Shown here in pieces: positions 9,408-50,222 of a stretch of DNA of 64,000 bases (positions are counted from its first letter, which is position 1; the number at the start of each line of letters is the position of its first letter). The notes under the pieces were generated by a model. That model saw only the letters and a list, made by a program, of their open reading frames with translations. It did not search any database and had not been told where the DNA came from. This DNA comes from an uncultured Acidimicrobiia bacterium (GTDB taxonomy: Bacteria > Actinomycetota > Acidimicrobiia > Spongiisociales > Spongiisociaceae). Location of the stretch: positions 1,162,311 to 1,226,310 of the forward strand of contig OY282370.1 in the NCBI GenBank assembly GCA_958295745.1. Direction: 5' to 3'. The position numbers and the translations under genes are program-made.

Positions 9408-10955
9408 TTATGACGGCCCGCGGCCGCCTTCGATCAGGGCCGCGGCGTGCTCGGCCAGCGCAACGGTGGGAAGATGGGTGTTGGCCCTCGGCGCCTGCGA
9501 CATGATGGAGGCGTCCACCACCCGCAGCCCCTCGATCCCCAGAACCCGGCACTGCGGATCCACCACTGTCTCCGCCTGATCGGCAGGCCCCATCCGGCAG
9601 CTGCCGGAGGCGTGCTGAGCGTCGAGGCACGAGCGCATCAGCCAGTCGTCGAGGTCGGCGTCCTCGATCCCCGGATCGACGTCGAGCCGCTCGGGGCCGA
9701 GCCATACCGCCGAGGCGATCCCCCGGATCGGACCGGACCCGGCCAGCTCCATCAGACGCCTCGCCCCGGCCCGCAGGCGCGCCAGGTCATCAGGATGGGA
9801 CAGCATCCGGAAGTCCACCCGGGGTTGGGCGTCCGGATCGGGGCCGGTGATGGCGACCTCGCCCCGGGATGCGCTCTCGAACACGCACATCTCCAGCAGT
9901 CCGGTCTCGAAGCCCTCGCCGCCGTAACCGCTCAGGTTCATGGAAAGGAGCAGCATGTCGTTGGGCACATCCCCCGCCGCCCCCGAGCCGTACCGGACGC
10001 AGCAGTTGGTGTGGCGGTCGTCGGGCGACCGGGCCCTGGCGTGTTCCCGCAGGCCGAGCATCAACCAGACGGCCGGGTGCTCCTGCAGCCCCCGGCCCGC
10101 CGGCAGGTCGGCCGCCACCTCGATGCCGAGGGGCGACAGCAGCTCGGCGGGGCCGACGCCCGAGCGCTGCAGGATGGCGGGGCTGTGGATTGCCCCCGCG
10201 CACAGGATCACCTCCCCTCCCCCGATATCTCTGGCCTCCCCGTCCAACCGGACCGATACTCCTGCGGCCCGGCCGCCGGACAGCAGCACCCGGTCCACCC
10301 TGGCCCCTCCGCGAACGGTGAGGTTGGGGCGGCGGCGGGCCGGCTCGATATAGGCGTCGTTGGTGGTTACCCGGCGGCCGCCCCGGCTGTTGACGGCGTA
10401 GGGCGACACGCCGGTGGACCCCGGAGCGTTGTGGTCGTCGTGCCAGGGGTGGCCCGCCGCCAAGGCCGCGTCCCGAAGCGCCGAGTCGACCGCCCCCCAT
10501 TCCTCCTGGGGTGTTCGGTGCACCGGGATGGGGCCGGAGTCCCCGTGATAAGGGGCTTCCCCGAAGTCGAGGTCGGTCTCCATGCGGAGGACGGCGGGCC
10601 AGATGTCGGCGCTCGACCATCCCGGCGCCACCCAGCGGTCGTAGTCCTCCGGCATGGCCTGGATGGCTATCTGGCCGTTGATGGCGGAGCTGCCCCCCAC
10701 CCCCCGGCCCCTCCAGTAGAGGGACGGTTCCTGCACCTGGGTCCGCCGGACCAGCAAGCCGGGCCAGTGATAGTCCGGGTCGGAGATGATCCGAGAGGGG
10801 TTGGGGCTGCGGATATGCCAAGGCGTGTCGGCGGAGCGATAGTCGAGCCCCGCTTCTAGAAGCAGAACCCGGCGGGCCGGGTCCTCGCTCAGCCGGGCCG
10901 CTACCACGGCGCCCGCCGATCCGGCCCCCACCACGATCGTGTCGTATCCGCCCAT
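9408..10955 (-). CDS. GMC-family FAD oxidoreductase (choline/alcohol dehydrogenase-like)
   Basis: VGAGSAGAV, GRGVGGSSAIN, HASGSCRMG, LRVVDASIM, NTH. Confidence 0.93.
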   Translation of the reverse strand: MGGYDTIVVGAGSAGAVVAARLSEDPARRVLLLEAGLDYRSADTPWHIRSPNPSRIISDPDYHWPGLLVRRTQVQEPSLYWRGRGVGGSSAINGQIAIQAMPEDYDRWVAPGWSSADIWPAVLRMETDLDFGEAPYHGDSGPIPVHRTPQEEWGAVDSALRDAALAAGHPWHDDHNAPGSTGVSPYAVNSRGGRRVTTNDAYIEPARRRPNLTVRGGARVDRVLLSGGRAAGVSVRLDGEARDIGGGEVILCAGAIHSPAILQRSGVGPAELLSPLGIEVAADLPAGRGLQEHPAVWLMLGLREHARARSPDDRHTNCCVRYGSGAAGDVPNDMLLLSMNLSGYGGEGFETGLLEMCVFESASRGEVAITGPDPDAQPRVDFRMLSHPDDLARLRAGARRLMELAGSGPIRGIASAVWLGPERLDVDPGIEDADLDDWLMRSCLDAQHASGSCRMGPADQAETVVDPQCRVLGIEGLRVVDASIMSQAPRANTHLPTVALAEHAAALIEGGRGPS

Positions 10956-11188
10956 GCCCCCAAAACTCTATCGTCATTATCGATGGATATTCCGCCGCAC
11001 TGAGCCGTTCCGACCGAATTACATCGTTGTAGCTGTTGTTTTGTTCTTTAAAATCGGCCTGGCCTCAACAATTTCAATCCTCTCTTAGACGCAACTCCGG
11101 CTTGGACGGGGGGCGGTCGAGGCGGCACAGACGACTCCGCCACTCCAGACGGTTCACACAGACCCTCTGGCAAAGTAGAGGCTTCATC

Positions 11189-11211
11189 AAAATTAGTGAT
11201 ACCATAATTTT
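11189..11211. promoter_or_regulatory. Inverted repeat AAAATTA-N9-TAATTTT overlapping the -10 box (CATAAT, 11203-11208) of the leaderless fic gene
   Basis: Seen directly in the sequence; the ATG lies 7 nt after the hexamer with no SD. Confidence 0.55.
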
Positions 11212-11215
11212 GACT

Positions 11216-12235
11216 ATGAACGAACAAATAGACCCTTCACCGAGAACAGGACGCCCCGCCTACCGCGAGGTCTACCAGAGGCTCGCCGTCCAGATCAGGG
11301 AGCTCCAGGACCACTTGGGCGGCCTCCCCAGCCCGGAGGAGGCGGCCGACATCTGGAACGACATCTGTATCCAGGAGGCCCACCACTCCACGGCCATCGA
11401 GGGCAACACCCTGGTACTGCAGGAGGTGGAGCAGCTGCTCGAAAGGGGTCTGGCGGTGGGCAACCGGGAGCTGCGCGAATACCTGGAGGTCAAGGGGTAC
11501 GCCGATGCGGCGCGCTGGGTGTACGAACAATCGGCCGGCCCTTCGGAATGGTCGAACGCCGACCGCCTCCTGACCCTGGCCGACGTGCGCATGGTCCACC
11601 ACAAGGCGATGAGGCCGGTGTGGGAGGCGGCGCCCCACCCGTTCGCTGCGGAACGCGAGGCGCCGGGCGCCTTCCGCGAGCACGAGATACGACCATTCCA
11701 GGGCGGGATGACCCCCGTCACCTGGCCGCTCATCCCTGCGGAGACGGCGGCTTGGGTGACCGACGCCGACTCGCTCGACCCGGACAGCCCGAACTTCCTC
11801 GAACAGCTGGCCGCCCTGCATTGCCGCTTCGAGCAGATACACCCCTTCATCGATGGCAACGGGCGGGCCGGACGGCTGGTGCTCAACCTGATTCTCGTCC
11901 GGCTCGGCTACCCGCCCGCCGTCATCTACAAGCGGGACCGGGACCGGTACCTGCGGGCGCTCCGGCGGGCCGACGCCGGCGACCCGGGCATGCTGGGCGA
12001 TCTGCTGGCCCGAGCGGTACTGGACAACCTGCACCGCTACGTGATCCCGGCCGTAGCGGGCCCGGCCCGGATGGTCCCGCTCTCCGCCCTCGCCTCCCCG
12101 GACCTGAAGATCCCCGCCCTGCGGGCCGCCGCCGCCCGCGGCCGCCTGAAGGCGACCCGGGGCCCCGACGGGCAGTGGCGCAGCTCCCGGCAATGGGTCG
12201 AGGAGTACCGCACCGGCCGGTGGCGCCGCAGCTGA
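11216..12235 (+). CDS. Fic/DOC family protein with a C-terminal HTH-like tail
   Basis: HPFIDGNGRAGR catalytic motif; internal STAIEGN inhibitory-helix motif; C-terminal PLSALA...RGRLKA...GQWRSS resembles an excisionase/HTH_17 fold. Confidence 0.92.
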   Translation: MNEQIDPSPRTGRPAYREVYQRLAVQIRELQDHLGGLPSPEEAADIWNDICIQEAHHSTAIEGNTLVLQEVEQLLERGLAVGNRELREYLEVKGYADAARWVYEQSAGPSEWSNADRLLTLADVRMVHHKAMRPVWEAAPHPFAAEREAPGAFREHEIRPFQGGMTPVTWPLIPAETAAWVTDADSLDPDSPNFLEQLAALHCRFEQIHPFIDGNGRAGRLVLNLILVRLGYPPAVIYKRDRDRYLRALRRADAGDPGMLGDLLARAVLDNLHRYVIPAVAGPARMVPLSALASPDLKIPALRAAAARGRLKATRGPDGQWRSSRQWVEEYRTGRWRRS

Positions 12236-12357
12236 GCCCCGCCGACTGCTCCGGCGGCGATGATCCGCACCGACGACTAGGCTGCCCCTCCACCGGAGGC
12301 ACGCGGCCTTCAGACCATCAGCCGCCGGTACCGCGGCCCCCGGAGGGGCAGCGGGCG

Positions 12358-12576
12358 GAAAACTAAAGCAAAACCCCCCCACACCCCACAACTTTACTTT
12401 TACGAAGAAGAAAACTAAAGCAAAACCCCCCCACACCCCACAACTTTACTTTTACGAAGAAGAAAACTAAAGCAAAACCCCCCCACACCCCACAACTTTA
12501 CTTTTACGAAGAAGAAAACTAAAGCAAAACCCCCCCACACCCCACAACTTTACTTTTACGAACAGGAAAACTAAAG
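12358..12576. repeat. 52-bp direct tandem repeat, 4 copies plus an 11-bp partial copy; AT-rich and strongly strand-asymmetric
   Basis: Unit gaaaactaaagcaaaacccccccacaccccacaactttacttttacgaagaa starts at 12358, 12410, 12462 and 12514, with the partial at 12566. Confidence 0.97.
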
Positions 12577-12577
12577 T
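12549..12577 (+). promoter_or_regulatory. Putative sigma70/SigA promoter TTTACT-N17-TAAAGT for a leaderless transcript of 12585-14336
   Basis: -35 at 12549-12554, -10 at 12572-12577, ATG 7 nt downstream. Confidence 0.6.
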
Positions 12578-12584
12578 TTCTCTC

Positions 12585-14336
12585 ATGGAGGCACCCCCCT
12601 TCAAGTTTTTCGACCCGCCCTCTCCTGATGCCGAAGCAAGGCGCGTGATCACCGCCTTGGCTGCCGGAGATTACGACCCGGAGCTGCTCGAGTCGGCTTC
12701 CGTCGACCTCAAGGAGGAGGCCGGACGGCGCTCGAACGGCGTAGTCCTTCCCGGTTCACCCCAGAACAACCGCGTCGCCCGCCCACTCGCCGAGGCGGCG
12801 GCCTGCATGGCCAACACCGAAGGCGGCGGTGTTCTGATCGTGGGAGTCGACGGACGAACCGGCGCGATCATCGGCGCCGACACCGACACCGACTGGCTGC
12901 GGACCCGCATCTACCAGCTGACCGACCGGCGGCTCACGGTCAACATTCGCGTCGCCGAGGTCAGAGGCAAACGGTTGCTGGTCATCTCCGTCCCCCAAGC
13001 CGTGGAACCGGTGCCCTTCCACGGCAAATATCGGCGCCGGCAAGGAAAAAACTGTGTGGAGGTCACGAGCACGGAGCTCCTCCAAGGGATATTCGCCGGA
13101 ATGGCAGCCGATCCCTCCTATCAACGCTCGACGGCGACCGTCGGCGCTATCTCCCCGGGAACCGAGACGGCCCTCAGGGGTCGGCTCACCCCGATCGACC
13201 CCGGCAAGGCCGCCCTCCCCCTGAGGGACTTGATCCTGCGCCTCGGGCTTGTCTTCGAGGACACCGAATACCTCAACGAAGCAGGCCGGATTTTGCTCTC
13301 CGCCGACAGCGGGCCCTCCCTCGACTACACCTATCGTGAGGTGCCCGGCGGCCCGTCGAGCGTCCGTATATACGAGTCCGGCCTCTCCCTGCTAGAAGAG
13401 ATCGTCCTCGTCGATGCGACGGCCCTTCGCAACAATCCCTTAACAGAGATAACCAACGGCTTCGAGGTGCGGCGTGTGCACGCCATCCCGCAACGGTCGT
13501 TGCGTGAAGCCATCCTCAACGGGGTTTGCCACCGTGAGTGGACCGACCCGGCGCCGACCGTCGTGGAGCACATCGGCTATGAGCTCCGTGTCACGTCCCC
13601 CGGCGGCCTCATGCGGGGCATCACGACCGACAACATCATCACCCATCCCTCCGTTCCCAGGTATCGCACCCTCATGAACGCCGTTCGCCAACTGGGTCTG
13701 GTCGAGCAGCAAGGGGTGGGGGTGGACATGATGTTCGCCGACCTGATCAGGATAGGGAGCACACCTCCCCTCATCGAGGTCACCGATGATCCGTCCGTTC
13801 GGGTCATCCTCTCCGGGCGGCGGCCCGACGAGGACCGATACCACTTCTTTCTCGATCTGCGGCCGCGAGGGGCCTTCAACGACGTCGACGCCGCCCTCGT
13901 CGTATGGCGCGCCTCCAACCCTGATACGCCTTTTCTGACCGCAGACTCGTGCGCCCCTCTCCTGCAACGAAGCCCAGAGGACGCTGAAACGGCCCTCCGC
14001 CGCCTCGCCGAATACAAACTGGGCGGGGTTCATGGTCTGCTGACTCCCATGACCACGCCGGACGGCGCCCCGCCCGCATGGGTGCTGAGCCAGGCCGCTC
14101 GCGAAGCCCTCCGGATCAGGCCGTCCCGCGAATCGTCCATCCATGCCTTGGCCTGGCTGCGGGAACGCGGCAGGATCTCCTCGACGGAATACTGTGAGAT
14201 AACGGGCTTCTCCCATGCCACCGCCATCGCCCACCTCAAGGCCTTGGCCGAAGCCGGGCACATGGAACCCAGCTCGCCGAGCGGACGGGGGCGCGGTTTC
14301 CACTACCTCCTGCCCGACAACCTCCGGGACCCATGA
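12585..14336 (+). CDS. AlbA_2/Schlafen-like N-terminal domain + HATPase_c_4-like (RecG-C-type) domain + C-terminal winged HTH
   Basis: SVDLKE...ACMANTEGGGVLIVGVD (AlbA_2); LREAILNGVCHREW...VTSPGG...P.YRTLMNAVRQLGLVEQQGVGVDMM (HATPase_c_4-like); GRISSTEYCEITG...RGRGFHY (wHTH). Confidence 0.85.
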   Translation: MEAPPFKFFDPPSPDAEARRVITALAAGDYDPELLESASVDLKEEAGRRSNGVVLPGSPQNNRVARPLAEAAACMANTEGGGVLIVGVDGRTGAIIGADTDTDWLRTRIYQLTDRRLTVNIRVAEVRGKRLLVISVPQAVEPVPFHGKYRRRQGKNCVEVTSTELLQGIFAGMAADPSYQRSTATVGAISPGTETALRGRLTPIDPGKAALPLRDLILRLGLVFEDTEYLNEAGRILLSADSGPSLDYTYREVPGGPSSVRIYESGLSLLEEIVLVDATALRNNPLTEITNGFEVRRVHAIPQRSLREAILNGVCHREWTDPAPTVVEHIGYELRVTSPGGLMRGITTDNIITHPSVPRYRTLMNAVRQLGLVEQQGVGVDMMFADLIRIGSTPPLIEVTDDPSVRVILSGRRPDEDRYHFFLDLRPRGAFNDVDAALVVWRASNPDTPFLTADSCAPLLQRSPEDAETALRRLAEYKLGGVHGLLTPMTTPDGAPPAWVLSQAAREALRIRPSRESSIHALAWLRERGRISSTEYCEITGFSHATAIAHLKALAEAGHMEPSSPSGRGRGFHYLLPDNLRDP

Positions 14337-14384: not shown

Positions 14385-16115
14385 TTATTCCGGCGGCCGG
14401 GCCCGGGCCGCATGAGCAAGGATGGAGTCGAGCACCAAGACGACGTCCTCGTGGACGTCCGAGGGTTCCAGGAAACGGACCAGCAGGTGGTAGTCCGCCT
14501 TCCGCATCAGCAGGGGCAACCCCACTTCGTCGAAGAAGGCGCCTAAGACCGGGCGGAGCAGCCGGTCGCTGATGTTGGTATCCAACCAATAGGGGTGTTC
14601 CAGGTCGCGCCGGGCTGCTCGCGGCGTGTGATCTTCGATGGTCTTGTCCATGGCCGCAAGCCAACGGTCCGCCTCCGGCTGCTCGAACAACGGGCCGGCC
14701 GCCGCCTTCCTCCCCTCCTGCCGGGCGTACTCACGCAGCGTCTTGGTGGGAAGCAGGTAGTTCTCGAGTCGGCGGCGCGGCCACATGTGCTCGACCAAGG
14801 CCCCGCCGGGTTCCGGCTCGGTTTCGAGACGGCCGAACAGCGCGTAGCCGACCAGGCCGGGATCAGCCTCCCTCAAGCCGTCGAAATGCCGGCGGGCCTC
14901 ACCGGGCCTGCCGCCCACATATTTGACGAACGGGCGCTCCAACACCTCACCCGCACCGTGGCCGAGCACCTCTGCGAAGGACCTCAACAAAGCCAGTTCC
15001 GCAGCACCCTCCAGGTACAGGACGAATCCGGTCAGTGCGGCCTGGTAGTAGTCCTCGAAACCGATGTACCGAAGGGCCTTCAACACCTCTGACGTGCGGT
15101 CTATCCGATGGGGAGACCCCACGAAGGCCACCACCGAACCCCGCCCGGCAGCCTCCCTGAGGATCACTTCGGAGTGGGAAGCGATGATCACCTGGGTTCC
15201 GTCGGCGGCGGCCGCCCGGCTCAACAGATCGTAAGTCTGGCGTTGCCGCAGAATCTCGAGGTGGGCCTCCGGTTCGTCGAGCAGCAGTACGCCGCCGGGG
15301 TGGAGGTGGATGAAAGCCAGCAACAGCAGCGTCTGCTGCATACCTCGACCGGCCGCCGTGATATCCAGGCGGGAACCTTCTCGATCGACATAGGTGAGCT
15401 CGATCTCGCCTCGCTCGGGGATCCGTCTGGGGCGGTCCGGCTTCGCGCCGAAGAGATCCGCCAGCTGGCTCGACAGCGTATCCCAGCGGCCTTCTCCGTC
15501 CGGCCTCTCGGCCGCGCGCAAACAGAGGTTGCGCAGCACCTCGGATGCGCGGCCCTCCCCCAGCCGAACGTTCACGGCGCCGGGTTCGATCCTCGTCTCG
15601 TTGGCGGCCAGACCGGATACGGGGCCGGTCAGCACTATTCGGGGGCGAAGCTCCTGCGGAAGCACCGGCATGCGCTCTTTTCCATCGGGATCCATCCGCA
15701 GCGGACGGCAGTAGAAGCTCTCCTCGTTGATATAGTCGAATTCCAGCCCGCACCTCCAAGACTCGTGTCCGGTCACCCCCTCCACGATCACGTCTATGCG
15801 GATGTTCTCGGTGCGTTGCCCGGCTTCATCGCGATAGGTCTTGCGAACCTGGAGGCCCCTCCACATCTGGCGTGCCGAAAGGCCGGGCACACCGGCCAGA
15901 TCCCTCCTGTTGATCACCACCCCGGGGCGATGCAGAGGCGCCTGGTCCCCCCGCTTCTCCGTCCAGCGCCGCAGCCCCAGGTCCCAGAGGGTGAGAGCCT
16001 GCAAAGCAGATGTCTTACCGGAGTCGTTAGGGCCGACCAACACCACCGGGTTGCCGAGCTCGATCTCTACCTCGGCCAGCCTCTTGAAGTTGCGGATGGT
16101 GAGCTTGGTGAACAT
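14385..16115 (-). CDS. OLD-family-like ABC/SMC-type ATPase with a degenerate TOPRIM-like C-terminus
   Basis: Walker A GPNDSGKTS, signature AAGRGMQQ, Walker B LLLDEPEAHL, H-loop IASHS; C-terminal LYLEGAAE...FGRLE. Confidence 0.8.
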   Translation of the reverse strand: MFTKLTIRNFKRLAEVEIELGNPVVLVGPNDSGKTSALQALTLWDLGLRRWTEKRGDQAPLHRPGVVINRRDLAGVPGLSARQMWRGLQVRKTYRDEAGQRTENIRIDVIVEGVTGHESWRCGLEFDYINEESFYCRPLRMDPDGKERMPVLPQELRPRIVLTGPVSGLAANETRIEPGAVNVRLGEGRASEVLRNLCLRAAERPDGEGRWDTLSSQLADLFGAKPDRPRRIPERGEIELTYVDREGSRLDITAAGRGMQQTLLLLAFIHLHPGGVLLLDEPEAHLEILRQRQTYDLLSRAAAADGTQVIIASHSEVILREAAGRGSVVAFVGSPHRIDRTSEVLKALRYIGFEDYYQAALTGFVLYLEGAAELALLRSFAEVLGHGAGEVLERPFVKYVGGRPGEARRHFDGLREADPGLVGYALFGRLETEPEPGGALVEHMWPRRRLENYLLPTKTLREYARQEGRKAAAGPLFEQPEADRWLAAMDKTIEDHTPRAARRDLEHPYWLDTNISDRLLRPVLGAFFDEVGLPLLMRKADYHLLVRFLEPSDVHEDVVLVLDSILAHAARARPPE

Positions 16116-35299: not shown

Positions 35300-36304
35300 T
35301 CATCCGACAGAAACAGTGCAGTCGATCCCGAACCCCGCATCCGAAGATTTGATCTCCACAATGGATTTCCCGGAGAAATTATCATTGGCGATGATATCGC
35401 CGAATTCTCCGGAGAACCCAGACACTCGCTCCCAATAGCAGGAACTATCCGCACTCAGCCTATAAGTGCCCGGTTCGATATCGACTCCCACCTCATATAC
35501 CCCCATCCAAATTTCAGACGATTCCGGTGTCAGCCTTTCGCCGAGTATCGATTCAAGGCTCTCTACTACCAAAGGACTGCAGTCGATCCCGAACCCCGCA
35601 TCCGAAGATTTGATCTCCACGATGAAGTATCCAGCAGAATTATCATTGGCGATGATATCGTCGAATTCTCCGGAGAACCCAGATACTCGCTCCCAATAGC
35701 AACTCTGTTCTATCAGGAATCGGTAAACTCCCGGCTCAATATCCACACCCACTGCATATGCTCCCGCATCCAGCACTCCCAGGAGCCACGATGGAACCGT
35801 GGTTGTCGTAGTCGGCGCCCTCGTGGTTGTCGTAGTCGGCGCCCTCGTGGTTGTCGTAGTCGCCTCCGTCGTCGTGGCAATCGCCTCCGTCGTCGTGGCA
35901 ATCGCCTCCGTCGTCGTGGTCATGGTCGGCAGATACGCCGTGCCCAACTCATCTTCACAGGGTGCGCCGTCAACCCCACCGAACTCCATATCCCGGAACC
36001 CCCACCTGAAATCCGGACCGGCGTCAATCACCATCTGCCGCAACTCATCCACCGAGAACCCCTGGTCAAGCCACTTCCCACAACGCATCCCTTCGAACCG
36101 GTCGGGGTCCGGCGCACCAATAATCGGCGGAGCTGCCGTAGTGGTCGTCCTTTCGGCCGGGGCCGTCTCCACCGTCTCCCGAACCGTCGTCGGCTCTGGG
36201 TCGTCCGGCCGATAAGCCGTAGTAGAGGTCTCCACACCCCCACAGGCACCCCCGACCGCAACGGCCAAAACAGCCGCAACCAATACTCTCCGAATCATAA
36301 TCAT
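35300..36304 (-). CDS. Lipoprotein with a Thr-rich stalk and two copies of a Cys-containing beta domain
   Basis: Lipobox AVGGAC; duplicated Y(A/E)VGVDIEPG.YR...CYWERVSGFSGEF.DIIANDN domain. Confidence 0.8.
   Translation of the reverse strand: MIMIRRVLVAAVLAVAVGGACGGVETSTTAYRPDDPEPTTVRETVETAPAERTTTTAAPPIIGAPDPDRFEGMRCGKWLDQGFSVDELRQMVIDAGPDFRWGFRDMEFGGVDGAPCEDELGTAYLPTMTTTTEAIATTTEAIATTTEATTTTTRAPTTTTTRAPTTTTTVPSWLLGVLDAGAYAVGVDIEPGVYRFLIEQSCYWERVSGFSGEFDDIIANDNSAGYFIVEIKSSDAGFGIDCSPLVVESLESILGERLTPESSEIWMGVYEVGVDIEPGTYRLSADSSCYWERVSGFSGEFGDIIANDNFSGKSIVEIKSSDAGFGIDCTVSVG
35798..35918. repeat. In-frame coding tandem repeats (24-bp x about 2.7, then 21-bp x about 2.7)
   Basis: Units cgtggttgtcgtagtcggcgccct and gcctccgtcgtcgtggcaatc. 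Confidence 0.9.
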
Positions 36305-45790: not shown

Positions 45791-46020
45791 CGGTGGACGA
45801 CCGATTCACTGAGTGGGCGGAAGCGGTGGGAGTACCGGTCGGTTCGGTTACCGATGAGGACACCAAGCAGGATCTCATCTGCGAGCTGGACGCCTGTGTG
45901 GCTCATCTCTACGACCTCGACGAGGACGACTTGGCTGTCATATACGAAACATTCCACGAAAGGACCGACTACTCTGAGCACCACGCGGCGGTGCTCGAAC
46001 ACTTTGGGAGAACTGAATGA
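45790..46020 (+). pseudogene. C-terminal fragment of an Eco57I-like/type IIG DNA methylase
   Basis: DDRFTEWAEAVGV...LICELDACVAHLYDL...IYETFH matches the recalled extreme C-terminus of large methylases partnered with PLD-SNF2 helicases; no N-terminus is present. Confidence 0.65.
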
Positions 46021-46319
46021 TCGAAAACCGAATACGTATTGGAGGCACTTCAGAGATAGAAAAACTATCTTGGAAACAGCGAGCAAAACATTATCTAGAT
46101 GGTTATCCTCAATATAAGGAGAAGTATAAGCTAGAAAAAATTAGTATAATTAAGAGATGGGTGAGCTATGCGCTTCGTAACGGACTAAACCCAGGATATC
46201 GCAACGAAAGGGCTATTGAGAATTTTCTGAGCTATAAATCGTATTCAGACAGCACTCTTAAAAGTTATCATCGCCATTTCTGTGAATGGTTCGATCATTG
46301 TGAGCGATCCGGCTGGTGA
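46017..46319 (+). CDS. Small low-GC hypothetical protein, possibly an integrase core-binding (SAM-like) domain
   Basis: ATGA-coupled to the upstream fragment; IENFLSYKSYSDSTLKSY...WFDH resembles the integrase N-terminal helical motif. Confidence 0.45.
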   Translation: MIENRIRIGGTSEIEKLSWKQRAKHYLDGYPQYKEKYKLEKISIIKRWVSYALRNGLNPGYRNERAIENFLSYKSYSDSTLKSYHRHFCEWFDHCERSGW

Positions 46320-46490
46320 GCCAGCTGTCTGAACTTTGTGTGTTATACCTCCTCGTATAGTGTCCGGTAAACTAGGCTGATGGAAAGGACAGCTTGAAGG
46401 ATGGGCGGAACTGCGGGCTTTCTGAGCGAGCGGGACCCCGGTATTTGGTACCCGCCGAAGGATTTTGCCCATTCACTGAGGCCTGCCCAG

Positions 46491-49282: not shown

Positions 49283-50222
49283 CCTGAATCCACCGGTGTG
49301 GTGGCGGTTGGGGGTGGAAATGTTAGGAAGTGCCTTTCTGACCTGGGATGATAGCCGTAGTCTGGCGAGGTCCTAGGAGCCCGCCTGCGCGGGGGCTTCA
49401 CGGCGGGGGAACACCCATTTCGTTGCTGAGGCCGTTCGCCGGGCCCGCCAGGCCGGGGCCTGTGGTTCTGTTGTGGTGCGGGCCGATGCGGGTTCTGGTC
49501 CTACGGTTTGATCGAGGCGTTGGACCGTCTGGGGGCCGGCTGGTCGATAACCGTTCCGCTCCGCTCCCATGTCCGGGCTGCTGTCGAAGCGATCCCGGAG
49601 TCTCGGACTGTACCTCTATTGATTATCCCGAAGGCGGAGAAGCCCAGGTAGTCGAGACGGCCATCACCTCATCCGCCCGCCACGGCAACCCTCGGATACG
49701 CATAGTCGTACGCAGAACCCGACTGATTAGTAGCCAAGCCGAGCTATGGCCCAATTGGCGATTCCACCCCTTCGCCACCAACACCGCACAACCCCCTGCC
49801 GAAGCTGACCTCTACCACCGCCGCCACGCCAAAGTAGAGCTCGCCATCCGCGACCTCAAAGAAGCCTCCGGCCTCGCTCATCTCCCATCAGGGACTTCTT
49901 CGCCAACGCCGCCTGGCTGGCCTGCGCGGTGCTCGCCCACAACCTCTACCGGTGGATCAACCACAGCGGCCGCAACATTCTCCGCCTGCCCGCCCGATGG
50001 CCCTGGGCCACCCAATACCAAACCACCCTACGGAACCTCCGCCGCCTACCCCAGCTCAGCTGACCCCCCCTTCGACACGCGGTACCCCCCCGCCTGAACC
50101 CCACACGCCCAAACCACCCCTCGCCATCCAGCATCCACCACCCCGGCTCCACCAACCACTAAAACCACCACTAGGCCACCACCCCAAACCACCCCACCAC
50201 CAAACGAATCGGTGGATTCAGG
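49283..50222 (+). mobile_element. Internally deleted IS1380-family element (940 bp)
   Basis: Perfect 13-bp terminal inverted repeats cctgaatccaccg (49283-49295) / cggtggattcagg (50210-50222); flanks tttag/tttaa form an imperfect TSD. Confidence 0.8.
49373..49975 (+). pseudogene. Frameshifted 3' half of an IS1380-family DDE transposase
   Basis: Pieces VVVRADAG(F), HAKVELAIRDLK and NAAWLACAVLAHNLYRW lie in different frames. Confidence 0.8.

Follow-up and report, generated by a model that had tools for sequence, protein, structure and literature searches.

We identified a tandem array of 52-bp units directly upstream of a Schlafen-type gene in a 64-kb stretch of DNA (contig OY282370.1; hereafter the window) from the genome of a sponge-symbiont Acidimicrobiia bacterium. 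The array ends 8 nt before the ATG of this gene, whose predicted product combines a Schlafen domain, a GHKL-type ATPase domain and a C-terminal winged helix-turn-helix (wHTH) domain. A Fic gene is located upstream in the same direction, and an AAA_15/AAA_21 ATPase gene is located downstream in convergent orientation. The features of the array and of the gene are listed in Table 1, and related loci are designated by numbers preceded by L. Comparison of these loci suggests that the array is probably an amplified, helically phased set of operators, through which the product of the Schlafen-type gene would regulate its own expression.

Table 1. Coordinates of the array, its parts and the downstream gene within the window
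Feature	Coordinates	Strand	Description and basis
Tandem array	12358..12576	+	4.2 exact or near-exact copies of the 52-bp unit GAAAACTAAAGCAAAACCCCCCCACACCCCACAACTTTACTTTTACGAAGAA (Tandem Repeats Finder); identical in strain L001
Distal orphan half-site	12359..12368	+	AAAACTAAAG; upstream left-arm partner absent; '+ - + - +' layout likewise in L022, L057 and L073
C/A-rich linker	12369..12391	+	CAAAACCCCCCCACACCCCACAA; recurs at +52, +104 and +156; lineage-variable, C-rich in all array-bearing lineages
Palindrome 1	12392..12420	.	CTTTACTTTT - 9 nt - AAAACTAAAG; 9/10 complementary
Palindrome 2	12444..12472	.	Copy of palindrome 1, 52 bp downstream
Palindrome 3	12496..12524	.	Sequence as palindrome 1, one further 52-bp step downstream
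Palindrome 4	12546..12578	.	AACTTTACTTTT - 9 nt - AAAACTAAAGTT; 11/12 complementary; longest and promoter-proximal (repeat search)
-10-like hexamer	12572..12577	+	TAAAGT (TANNNT), located in the right-hand arm of palindrome 4 and separated from the ATG by 7 nt; internal copies are TAAAGC
Schlafen-type gene	12585..14336	+	583 aa; SLFN_AlbA_2, HATPase_c_4 and DIP2311-like C-terminal wHTH (Pfam); the ATG is the first start codon of the open reading frame

Organization of the array

Tandem Repeats Finder reported a period of 52, 98% matches and a score of 424 for this array, which was the only one with a period above 24 in the 64 kb. Units 1–3 were identical and unit 4 had two mismatches that changed GAAGAA to GAACAG; the number of matches expected by chance was 0. 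The GC content of positions 12400–12599 was 0.435, compared to 0.657 for the whole window, and the array had the most negative GC skew in the window (-0.67). An earlier note, made from the letters of this DNA, had described the block as an AT-rich, C/A-skewed unit of 52 bp repeated four times with a variant last unit, and every one of these statements was correct.

The core of each unit is an inverted repeat, CTTTACTTTT-N9-AAAA(C/G)TAAAG. The TTTACT and TAAAG elements pointed out in the earlier note are the two arms of this one inverted repeat, and the array thus consists of four palindromes and one distal half-site. The half-site AAAASTAAAG occurred nine times in the window (0.42 expected), five times on the plus and four times on the minus strand; all nine occurrences were in the array, along which the two orientations strictly alternated. 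The centers of the palindromes are 52 bp apart, which corresponds to approximately five helical turns and places all palindromes on one face of the DNA. No further copy of the 52-bp unit or of its 10-nt half-site was found within the window, and a dispersed repeat family or regulon was rejected on this basis.

All five plus-strand half-sites (12359–12576) have a C where a perfect palindrome needs a G (AAAACTAAAG versus AAAAGTAAAG of the left arm). Every copy shares this fixed asymmetry, also the promoter-proximal one, which is a mark of homogenization across the whole array.

Orthologous arrays in related genomes

Tandem arrays with the same period were detected at the orthologous site in other genomes. 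One of them, L001, is a hifiasm long-read contig from another sample which was 98.1% identical to the window over 9.75 kb. Its array was identical to that of the window, and the 122 nt just upstream of the array contained 4 substitutions and 1 indel. A circular long-read contig (L005) had 4.2 copies and a long-read chromosome (L011, OZ241842.1) had 8.3 copies, each with a period of 52 bp. In addition, 3.3 copies were found in L002, a short-read scaffold, and copy numbers from such scaffolds are unreliable. Short-read sequences were found to break within the array: L004 and L012 had N gaps there, and the contigs of L003 and L013 ended in its last unit. An assembly artefact was rejected, because arrays were present in four long-read assemblies and short-read assemblies broke at this place. 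Counting units in related genomes had been suggested in the earlier note as a check on this point, and the 52-bp arrays found at the same site in other long-read assemblies supported the array.

Several of the arrays had diverged units. They were located at the same position upstream of orthologs whose proteins were 78–80% identical, and their unit consensuses had 33–45 of the 52 positions in common between sub-lineages and were near-identical within each genome, a pattern of concerted evolution. In the protein tree, the array-bearing lineages formed one clade. An alignment of ten lineages showed that the two arms and the distal box are conserved and that the 9-nt spacer and the linker vary. 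Half-sites occupied identical positions, from -226 to -18, in the window and in L005. Comparison of L005 (CTTTAC/GTAAAG) with L014 (CTTAAC/GTTAAG) revealed a change on both arms by which the symmetry was kept. The sister clade, with orthologs of 69–75% identity, had no array; here, the module was present once, in the form of two direct boxes AAAAGTTAAG 51–52 nt apart with an inverted box 9–10 nt before the proximal direct box.

These data bear in two ways on the idea, also raised in the earlier note, that the array is a copy-number-variable expression tuner. The number of units does differ between lineages (4.2 versus 8.3); on the other hand, two strains that differ by 1.9% had identical arrays. 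The only difference within a lineage was 3.3 versus 8.3 copies at ∼98.5% identity, in which the value of 3.3 comes from the short-read scaffold and is maybe collapsed.

Palindromes across the gene family

A scan of metagenome contigs with protein alignment yielded 80 more loci with 34–70% identity. We then took 70 non-redundant loci (34–100% protein identity), searched the 80 nt preceding each start codon for the best inverted repeat and compared it with 100 shuffles of the same sequence. As the shuffles kept base composition only, random windows of the same loci were added as real-sequence controls. The best upstream inverted repeat was reached by no more than 5 of 100 shuffles in 48 of the 70 loci, compared to 8 of 210 control windows; at the level of no more than 1 of 100 shuffles, these numbers were 34 of 70 and 2 of 210. 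The palindromes shared a common design, with A-rich inner arm ends and a spacer of mostly 6–10 nt; the median end point of the right arm was -18. A frequent form was TTATACTTT-N6-10-AAAGTATAA, and the 48 loci contained 40 distinct half-site 8-mers.

The spacing was also found outside the arrays. Half-sites of the same orientation were present 50–52 bp apart upstream of the gene in at least 12 non-array loci, several of which had the '+ - + - +' layout, and 5 of 39 loci had a second full palindrome at exactly 51 bp and at no other distance within 25–116 bp. Two distant loci contained tandem arrays of their own directly upstream of the gene, with a palindrome in each unit: L021 (homolog of 57% identity) had a 50-bp array of 2.8 copies, and L092 (38% identity) had a 50-bp array of 2.4 copies in which the terminal palindrome was the best. 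These two arrays arose independently of that in the window. Overall, the palindrome is often repeated at 51–52 bp, and some lineages have developed this into perfect arrays of 50–52 bp with 2.4 to 8 units.

Other repeats were observed at some of these loci. A minisatellite (35 bp × 2.7) was located just downstream of a distant homolog in L071 (4311–4404), and three related loci had a degenerate 40 bp × 2.2 repeat ∼350 nt upstream (L067, 477–562; L076, 2030–2115; L080, 616–701).

The binding sites could be real and their amplification functionless, in that direct repeats 51–52 bp apart invite slippage or unequal crossing-over and neutral copies would drift in number. Perfect arrays which appeared independently in three lineages with different unit sequences fit such a process, as do the different copy numbers of sub-lineages (4.2 and 8.3) and the fact that one or two sites suffice in most members of the family. 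However, without constraint, collapse or decay of the array should have occurred in one lineage or another, and at least 2–4 units with a period of exactly 52 bp persist in each of the three sub-lineages of the array clade over ∼20% protein divergence. In addition, the array is unchanged between the two strains that differ by 1.9% elsewhere. We therefore consider neutral amplification unlikely, and favor units retained as operators.

Candidate binder and nature of the site

The palindrome was conserved with the Schlafen-type gene irrespective of its neighbors. Of the 48 loci with a palindrome, only 4 had a homolog of the Fic protein and 2 a homolog of the AAA_15 ATPase. The Schlafen-type gene is the sole element common to these loci, which makes its own product the most economical candidate for the binder. 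Two potential binders of a multimeric array with approximately five helical turns per unit had been named in the earlier note. The comparative data favor the first, the wHTH domain of the gene itself, as the predicted binder; the second, the HTH of the neighboring Fic protein, was rejected, as the palindrome travels with the Schlafen-type gene and Fic is rarely present.

A different protein might occupy the sites, for example a global regulator or an AT-preferring nucleoid protein such as a silencer of the Lsr2 type. The half-sites are AT-rich islands in DNA of 66% GC, and a test of co-variation (see below) gave no link to the wHTH domain, both of which would be compatible with such a factor. 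On the other side, the gene is accompanied by this palindrome design in widely differing organisms and neighborhoods, and a shared global factor does not explain lineage-specific sequences in which symmetry is preserved, as illustrated by the variety of half-site 8-mers; nor did the 64-kb window contain an additional half-site. We regard a separate DNA-binding factor as improbable and the Schlafen-type protein as the better candidate.

The palindromes were weak as single-strand hairpins: internal units had a predicted energy of -1.4 kcal/mol (z -0.5) and the terminal unit one of -4.5 kcal/mol. Among the arm mismatches in the 48 palindromes, 6 of 30 were G-T, which is the proportion expected by chance. 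Weak folding and the absence of a G-U bias favor a protein site on duplex DNA over an RNA fold. A search against Rfam 15 revealed nothing relevant in positions 11500–13500 at E-values up to 1 and nothing at the palindromes in 18 related loci. An RNA hairpin was rejected on the grounds of weak folding and the lack of a wobble-pair bias, and a known RNA family on those of the Rfam search.

More generally, the block might act as a structural element, either as a C/A-rich leader with AU hairpins (e.g., in read-through from Fic) or by forming G-quadruplexes on the G-rich bottom strand. The co-directional Fic and Schlafen-type genes would allow the former, and a G4Hunter score of -1.92 in each linker, together with C-rich linkers in all array lineages, would allow the latter. 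However, besides the folding and Rfam results above, Fic is separated from the array by a GC hairpin of -45.5 kcal/mol, higher G-quadruplex scores were obtained for 13 regions of the window, and in the sister clade the boxes are retained and the C-tracts are missing. A G-quadruplex or i-motif was rejected as the main feature for the last two reasons, and a structural role of either type appears very unlikely compared to duplex operators.

We also considered a phage origin. The unit core had 0 matches in viral contigs and this origin was rejected. The palindrome pattern had 7 matches there, which we attribute to chance because all of them were in contigs of 24–29% GC without a Schlafen gene.

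Predicted promoter and transcription start

The pattern TTTACT-N17-TAAAGY occurred exactly four times in the window. All four occurrences were in the array, three ending in TAAAGC and the last in TAAAGT. This TAAAGT is followed by TTCTCTC (7 nt) and then by the ATG, and no Shine-Dalgarno sequence was found before the ATG. The right arm of palindrome 4 overlaps the -10-like hexamer and stops 6 nt before the ATG. A TANNNT hexamer 7 nt from the ATG together with the lack of a Shine-Dalgarno sequence suggests a leaderless mRNA, whose 5' end would most likely coincide with the ATG or lie beside it. The same arrangement, a TANNNT that precedes the start codon by 6–7 nt in the absence of a Shine-Dalgarno sequence, was observed in L011, L004, L005, L012, L006, L014, L010, L017, L018 and L020; the exception among close relatives was L016.

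According to the earlier note, the hexamer ends in T in the last unit only. This held here and in all four other orthologous arrays, whose internal hexamers were TACAGA, TAAAGA, TAAAGA and TAAACC and whose terminal hexamers were TATAGT, TATAGT, TAAAGT and TAAAGT, respectively. The terminal-only TANNNT also follows naturally from where the repeat ends. The -10 element is without its final T in the upstream units, which are thus better viewed as extra binding sites than as promoters. The number of repeats leaves promoter spacing intact, with terminal palindrome, -10 element and ATG unchanged in arrays of 4.2 and 8.3 units.

The block had originally been interpreted as four stacked -35/-10 modules. 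In such an arrangement, each of the units would act as a weak promoter, with nested transcripts at 52-nt intervals or a reservoir of RNA polymerase as the result. TTTACT-N17-TAAAGC is indeed present in each unit, and the distal box of L010 is also TANNNT. However, TTTACT and TAAAG are the symmetric arms of the palindrome, and a scan with the sigma-70 consensus found no promoter in the units at a threshold of 9 of 12 positions (the TTTACT/TAAAG modules reach 8/12 at best). Internal hexamers lacked the final T in all five arrays; furthermore, a transcript that began in an upstream unit would lack a Shine-Dalgarno sequence and would be unable to use leaderless initiation. Stacked promoters are thus a highly improbable explanation, and the data agree better with a single promoter preceded by operator sites.

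Proposed function of the array

The anatomy of the array, its conservation, its spacing and its association with the gene were observed directly in the sequences. We propose that the Schlafen-type protein would bind through its C-terminal winged helix, one dimer per palindrome, and that the dimers would touch from site to site along one face of the DNA, leading to cooperative autorepression. The protein bound to palindrome 4 would cover the -10 element and the start of the leaderless gene and thus occlude RNA polymerase. In this mechanism, the identity of the binder, repression by binding and the transcription start site are predictions from sequence comparison. The ancestral promoter may have had two to three sites with a spacing of 51–52 bp, from which unequal recombination or slippage between direct repeats would have generated 4–8 units that were then kept homogeneous within each genome. 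The extra units could provide sharper repression, could allow more protein to be stored or could be merely tolerated.

Several points weigh against autoregulation by the Schlafen-type protein. A comparison of half-site distances with distances in the C-terminal domain gave no sign of co-variation (partial correlation of 0.016 with the other domains controlled), and a weak signal was seen with the N-terminal Slfn domain (0.18); with no domain-specific signal in this test, the protein is a candidate binder. The DIP2311-like_C wHTH match itself scored 23.5 bits, below the Pfam gathering score of 27. A single C/C mismatch of the internal palindromes is fixed across the copies. Several relatives have a TTGACT-like left arm too far from the -10 element for a -35/-10 pair of the sigma-70 type, so that the promoter model is built on the -10 element. 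In the family comparison, a heuristic was used to set the start codons of distant loci, and the 70 loci are phylogenetically non-independent. Finally, there is no sign of a difference in behavior between two units and arrays of four or eight.

A further role of the array might be that of a DNA scaffold. Here, the Schlafen-GHKL-wHTH protein, a potentially toxic nuclease, would be kept as an inactive higher-order oligomer or filament, with one dimer on each palindrome, and would be stored on its own promoter; a trigger such as a phage cue or ATP turnover would free the effector and derepress the gene in one step, and the number of units (4 versus 8) would set the size of the pool. We consider such storage rather improbable.

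If the units are operators, arrays of this type would account for one class of 'mystery' minisatellites, at which short-read assemblies of sponge-symbiont genomes break. They also represent a clean natural case of cis-regulatory concerted evolution, in which spacing is kept and sequence drifts.

The Schlafen-type gene, its neighbors and other features of the window

The protein matched SLFN_AlbA_2 (PF04326) with 47.8 bits (cut-off 25.3) and HATPase_c_4 with 40.4 bits (cut-off 26). Its homologs had HTH matches to PF22168, PF12802 or PF13412, among them MarR_2 or HTH_24. Residues 24–561 were homologous to the uncharacterized structure of DIP2311 (PDB 3LMM; E-value 4e-68). E36 and D41 were invariant in protein alignment A2. 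Their 5-residue spacing is that of E15 and D20, the catalytic pair mutated in RorSlfn5 (PMC13056530), and the likeness is one of spacing alone. Neither PADLOC nor NCBIfam assigned the protein to a defense family.

The gene neighborhood includes a GMC oxidoreductase, the Fic protein, the AAA_15 ATPase and an SLH protein, with conserved synteny on chromosomal contigs of 2–3 Mb. The start of the Fic gene (11036–12235) is ambiguous: the longest open reading frame starts from TTG at 11036 and encodes 399 aa, and the gene call in L001 has 339 aa. Low GC content (0.53–0.57) was observed at 10900–11300, near the Fic start. The GC-rich hairpin mentioned above (12281–12352; stem CTGCCCCTCC/GGAGGGGCAG with inner pairs, z -1.9, no U-tract) is located between the Fic stop codon and the array, and short GC hairpins also precede the arrays of L002 and L004. 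It may serve as a terminator or insulator for Fic that shields the array from read-through.

The AAA_15/AAA_21 ATPase gene was linked to the Schlafen-type gene in two ways, being convergent and downstream in the window clade (14385–16115, minus strand) and divergent and upstream in L010 (2003–3754). Its best PADLOC matches were NsnB, AriA, MADS3 and GajA, which involved the N-terminal ATPase part only. There are hints that the two genes form a two-gene system; the ATPase was absent from most distant loci. In the sister clade (L006–L009, 5945–6585; L016, 5942–6325), a small Fic protein of 127 aa was present in place of the AAA_15 gene. Some of these loci had a small NikA-like gene beside it, and the two may represent a Fic toxin-antitoxin pair.

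Three additional features were observed elsewhere in the window. One is a short open reading frame at 46018–46320 in DNA of ∼36–40% GC, the GC minimum of the window, which appears foreign in a genome of 66% GC. The second is a compound tandem repeat at 35798–35928, in which perfect units of 24 bp (2.7 copies) and of 21 bp (2.9 copies) are adjacent. The third is a region of normal GC content at 50000–50200 whose GC skew of -0.65 ranks second among the most negative values in the window; it contains tracts rich in C and a ACCACCCCAA repeat and has a G4Hunter score above 2.

Comparison with known systems

The array can be compared with several known repeats. In sopC of the F plasmid, twelve direct repeats of 43 bp each contain an inverted repeat that is bound by SopB. 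Both arrays consist of direct repeats of approximately 4–5 helical turns, each with one palindromic site for a dimeric HTH protein, which is predicted in our case. Unlike sopC, the array is in a chromosomal, syntenic context and its last unit serves as the promoter of the gene next to it. The neighborhood contained neither ParA/ParB nor replication genes and was not that of a plasmid, in contrast to what is expected of a partition site or iteron.

Promoter repeats of contingency loci and the mycobacterial interspersed repetitive unit-variable number tandem repeats (MIRU-VNTR) resemble the array, which consists of ∼50-bp repeats between genes of an actinobacterium and has a lineage-variable number of copies. 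The array is not a contingency-locus repeat, because the number of units leaves the -35/-10 spacing unchanged. Unlike MIRU-VNTR, its unit is not dispersed, with no second locus in the 64-kb window, and relatives that lack an array also have the conserved palindrome, as a single copy.

The closest functional parallel involves AbiEi and Rv2827c, which belong to toxin-antitoxin or abortive-infection operons that are autoregulated via several inverted repeats in the promoter (PMC7319586). In both cases, a wHTH product of a defense or toxin locus is associated with more than one inverted repeat that overlaps elements of its own promoter, although binding is a prediction for the locus studied here. 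Binding of AbiEi and Rv2827c is cooperative, either positively or negatively (PMC7319586). The difference is that a separate small antitoxin binds there, to two repeats or two sets of repeats, whereas the candidate binder in our locus is a 583-aa effector-like protein with 4–8 identical sites in a perfect array of fixed 52-bp phase.

With regard to the protein, the gene in the window has the domain order of 'HisKinase-HTH' Schlafens (PMC13056530), of DIP2311 (3LMM) and of Photorhabdus TrlG (bioRxiv 10.1101/2020.06.02.129163). This architecture accounts for 19.2% of prokaryotic Schlafens and is the second most common one (PMC13056530); defense by it specifically is not demonstrated in the passages considered. 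The survey contains no word starting with 'autoregulat' or 'repress', and the passages considered from the TrlG paper describe no operator of this kind. The papers considered here are silent on how the Schlafen-GHKL-HTH class is controlled, and the comparison presented here provides a concrete handle on this question in the form of the promoter palindrome.

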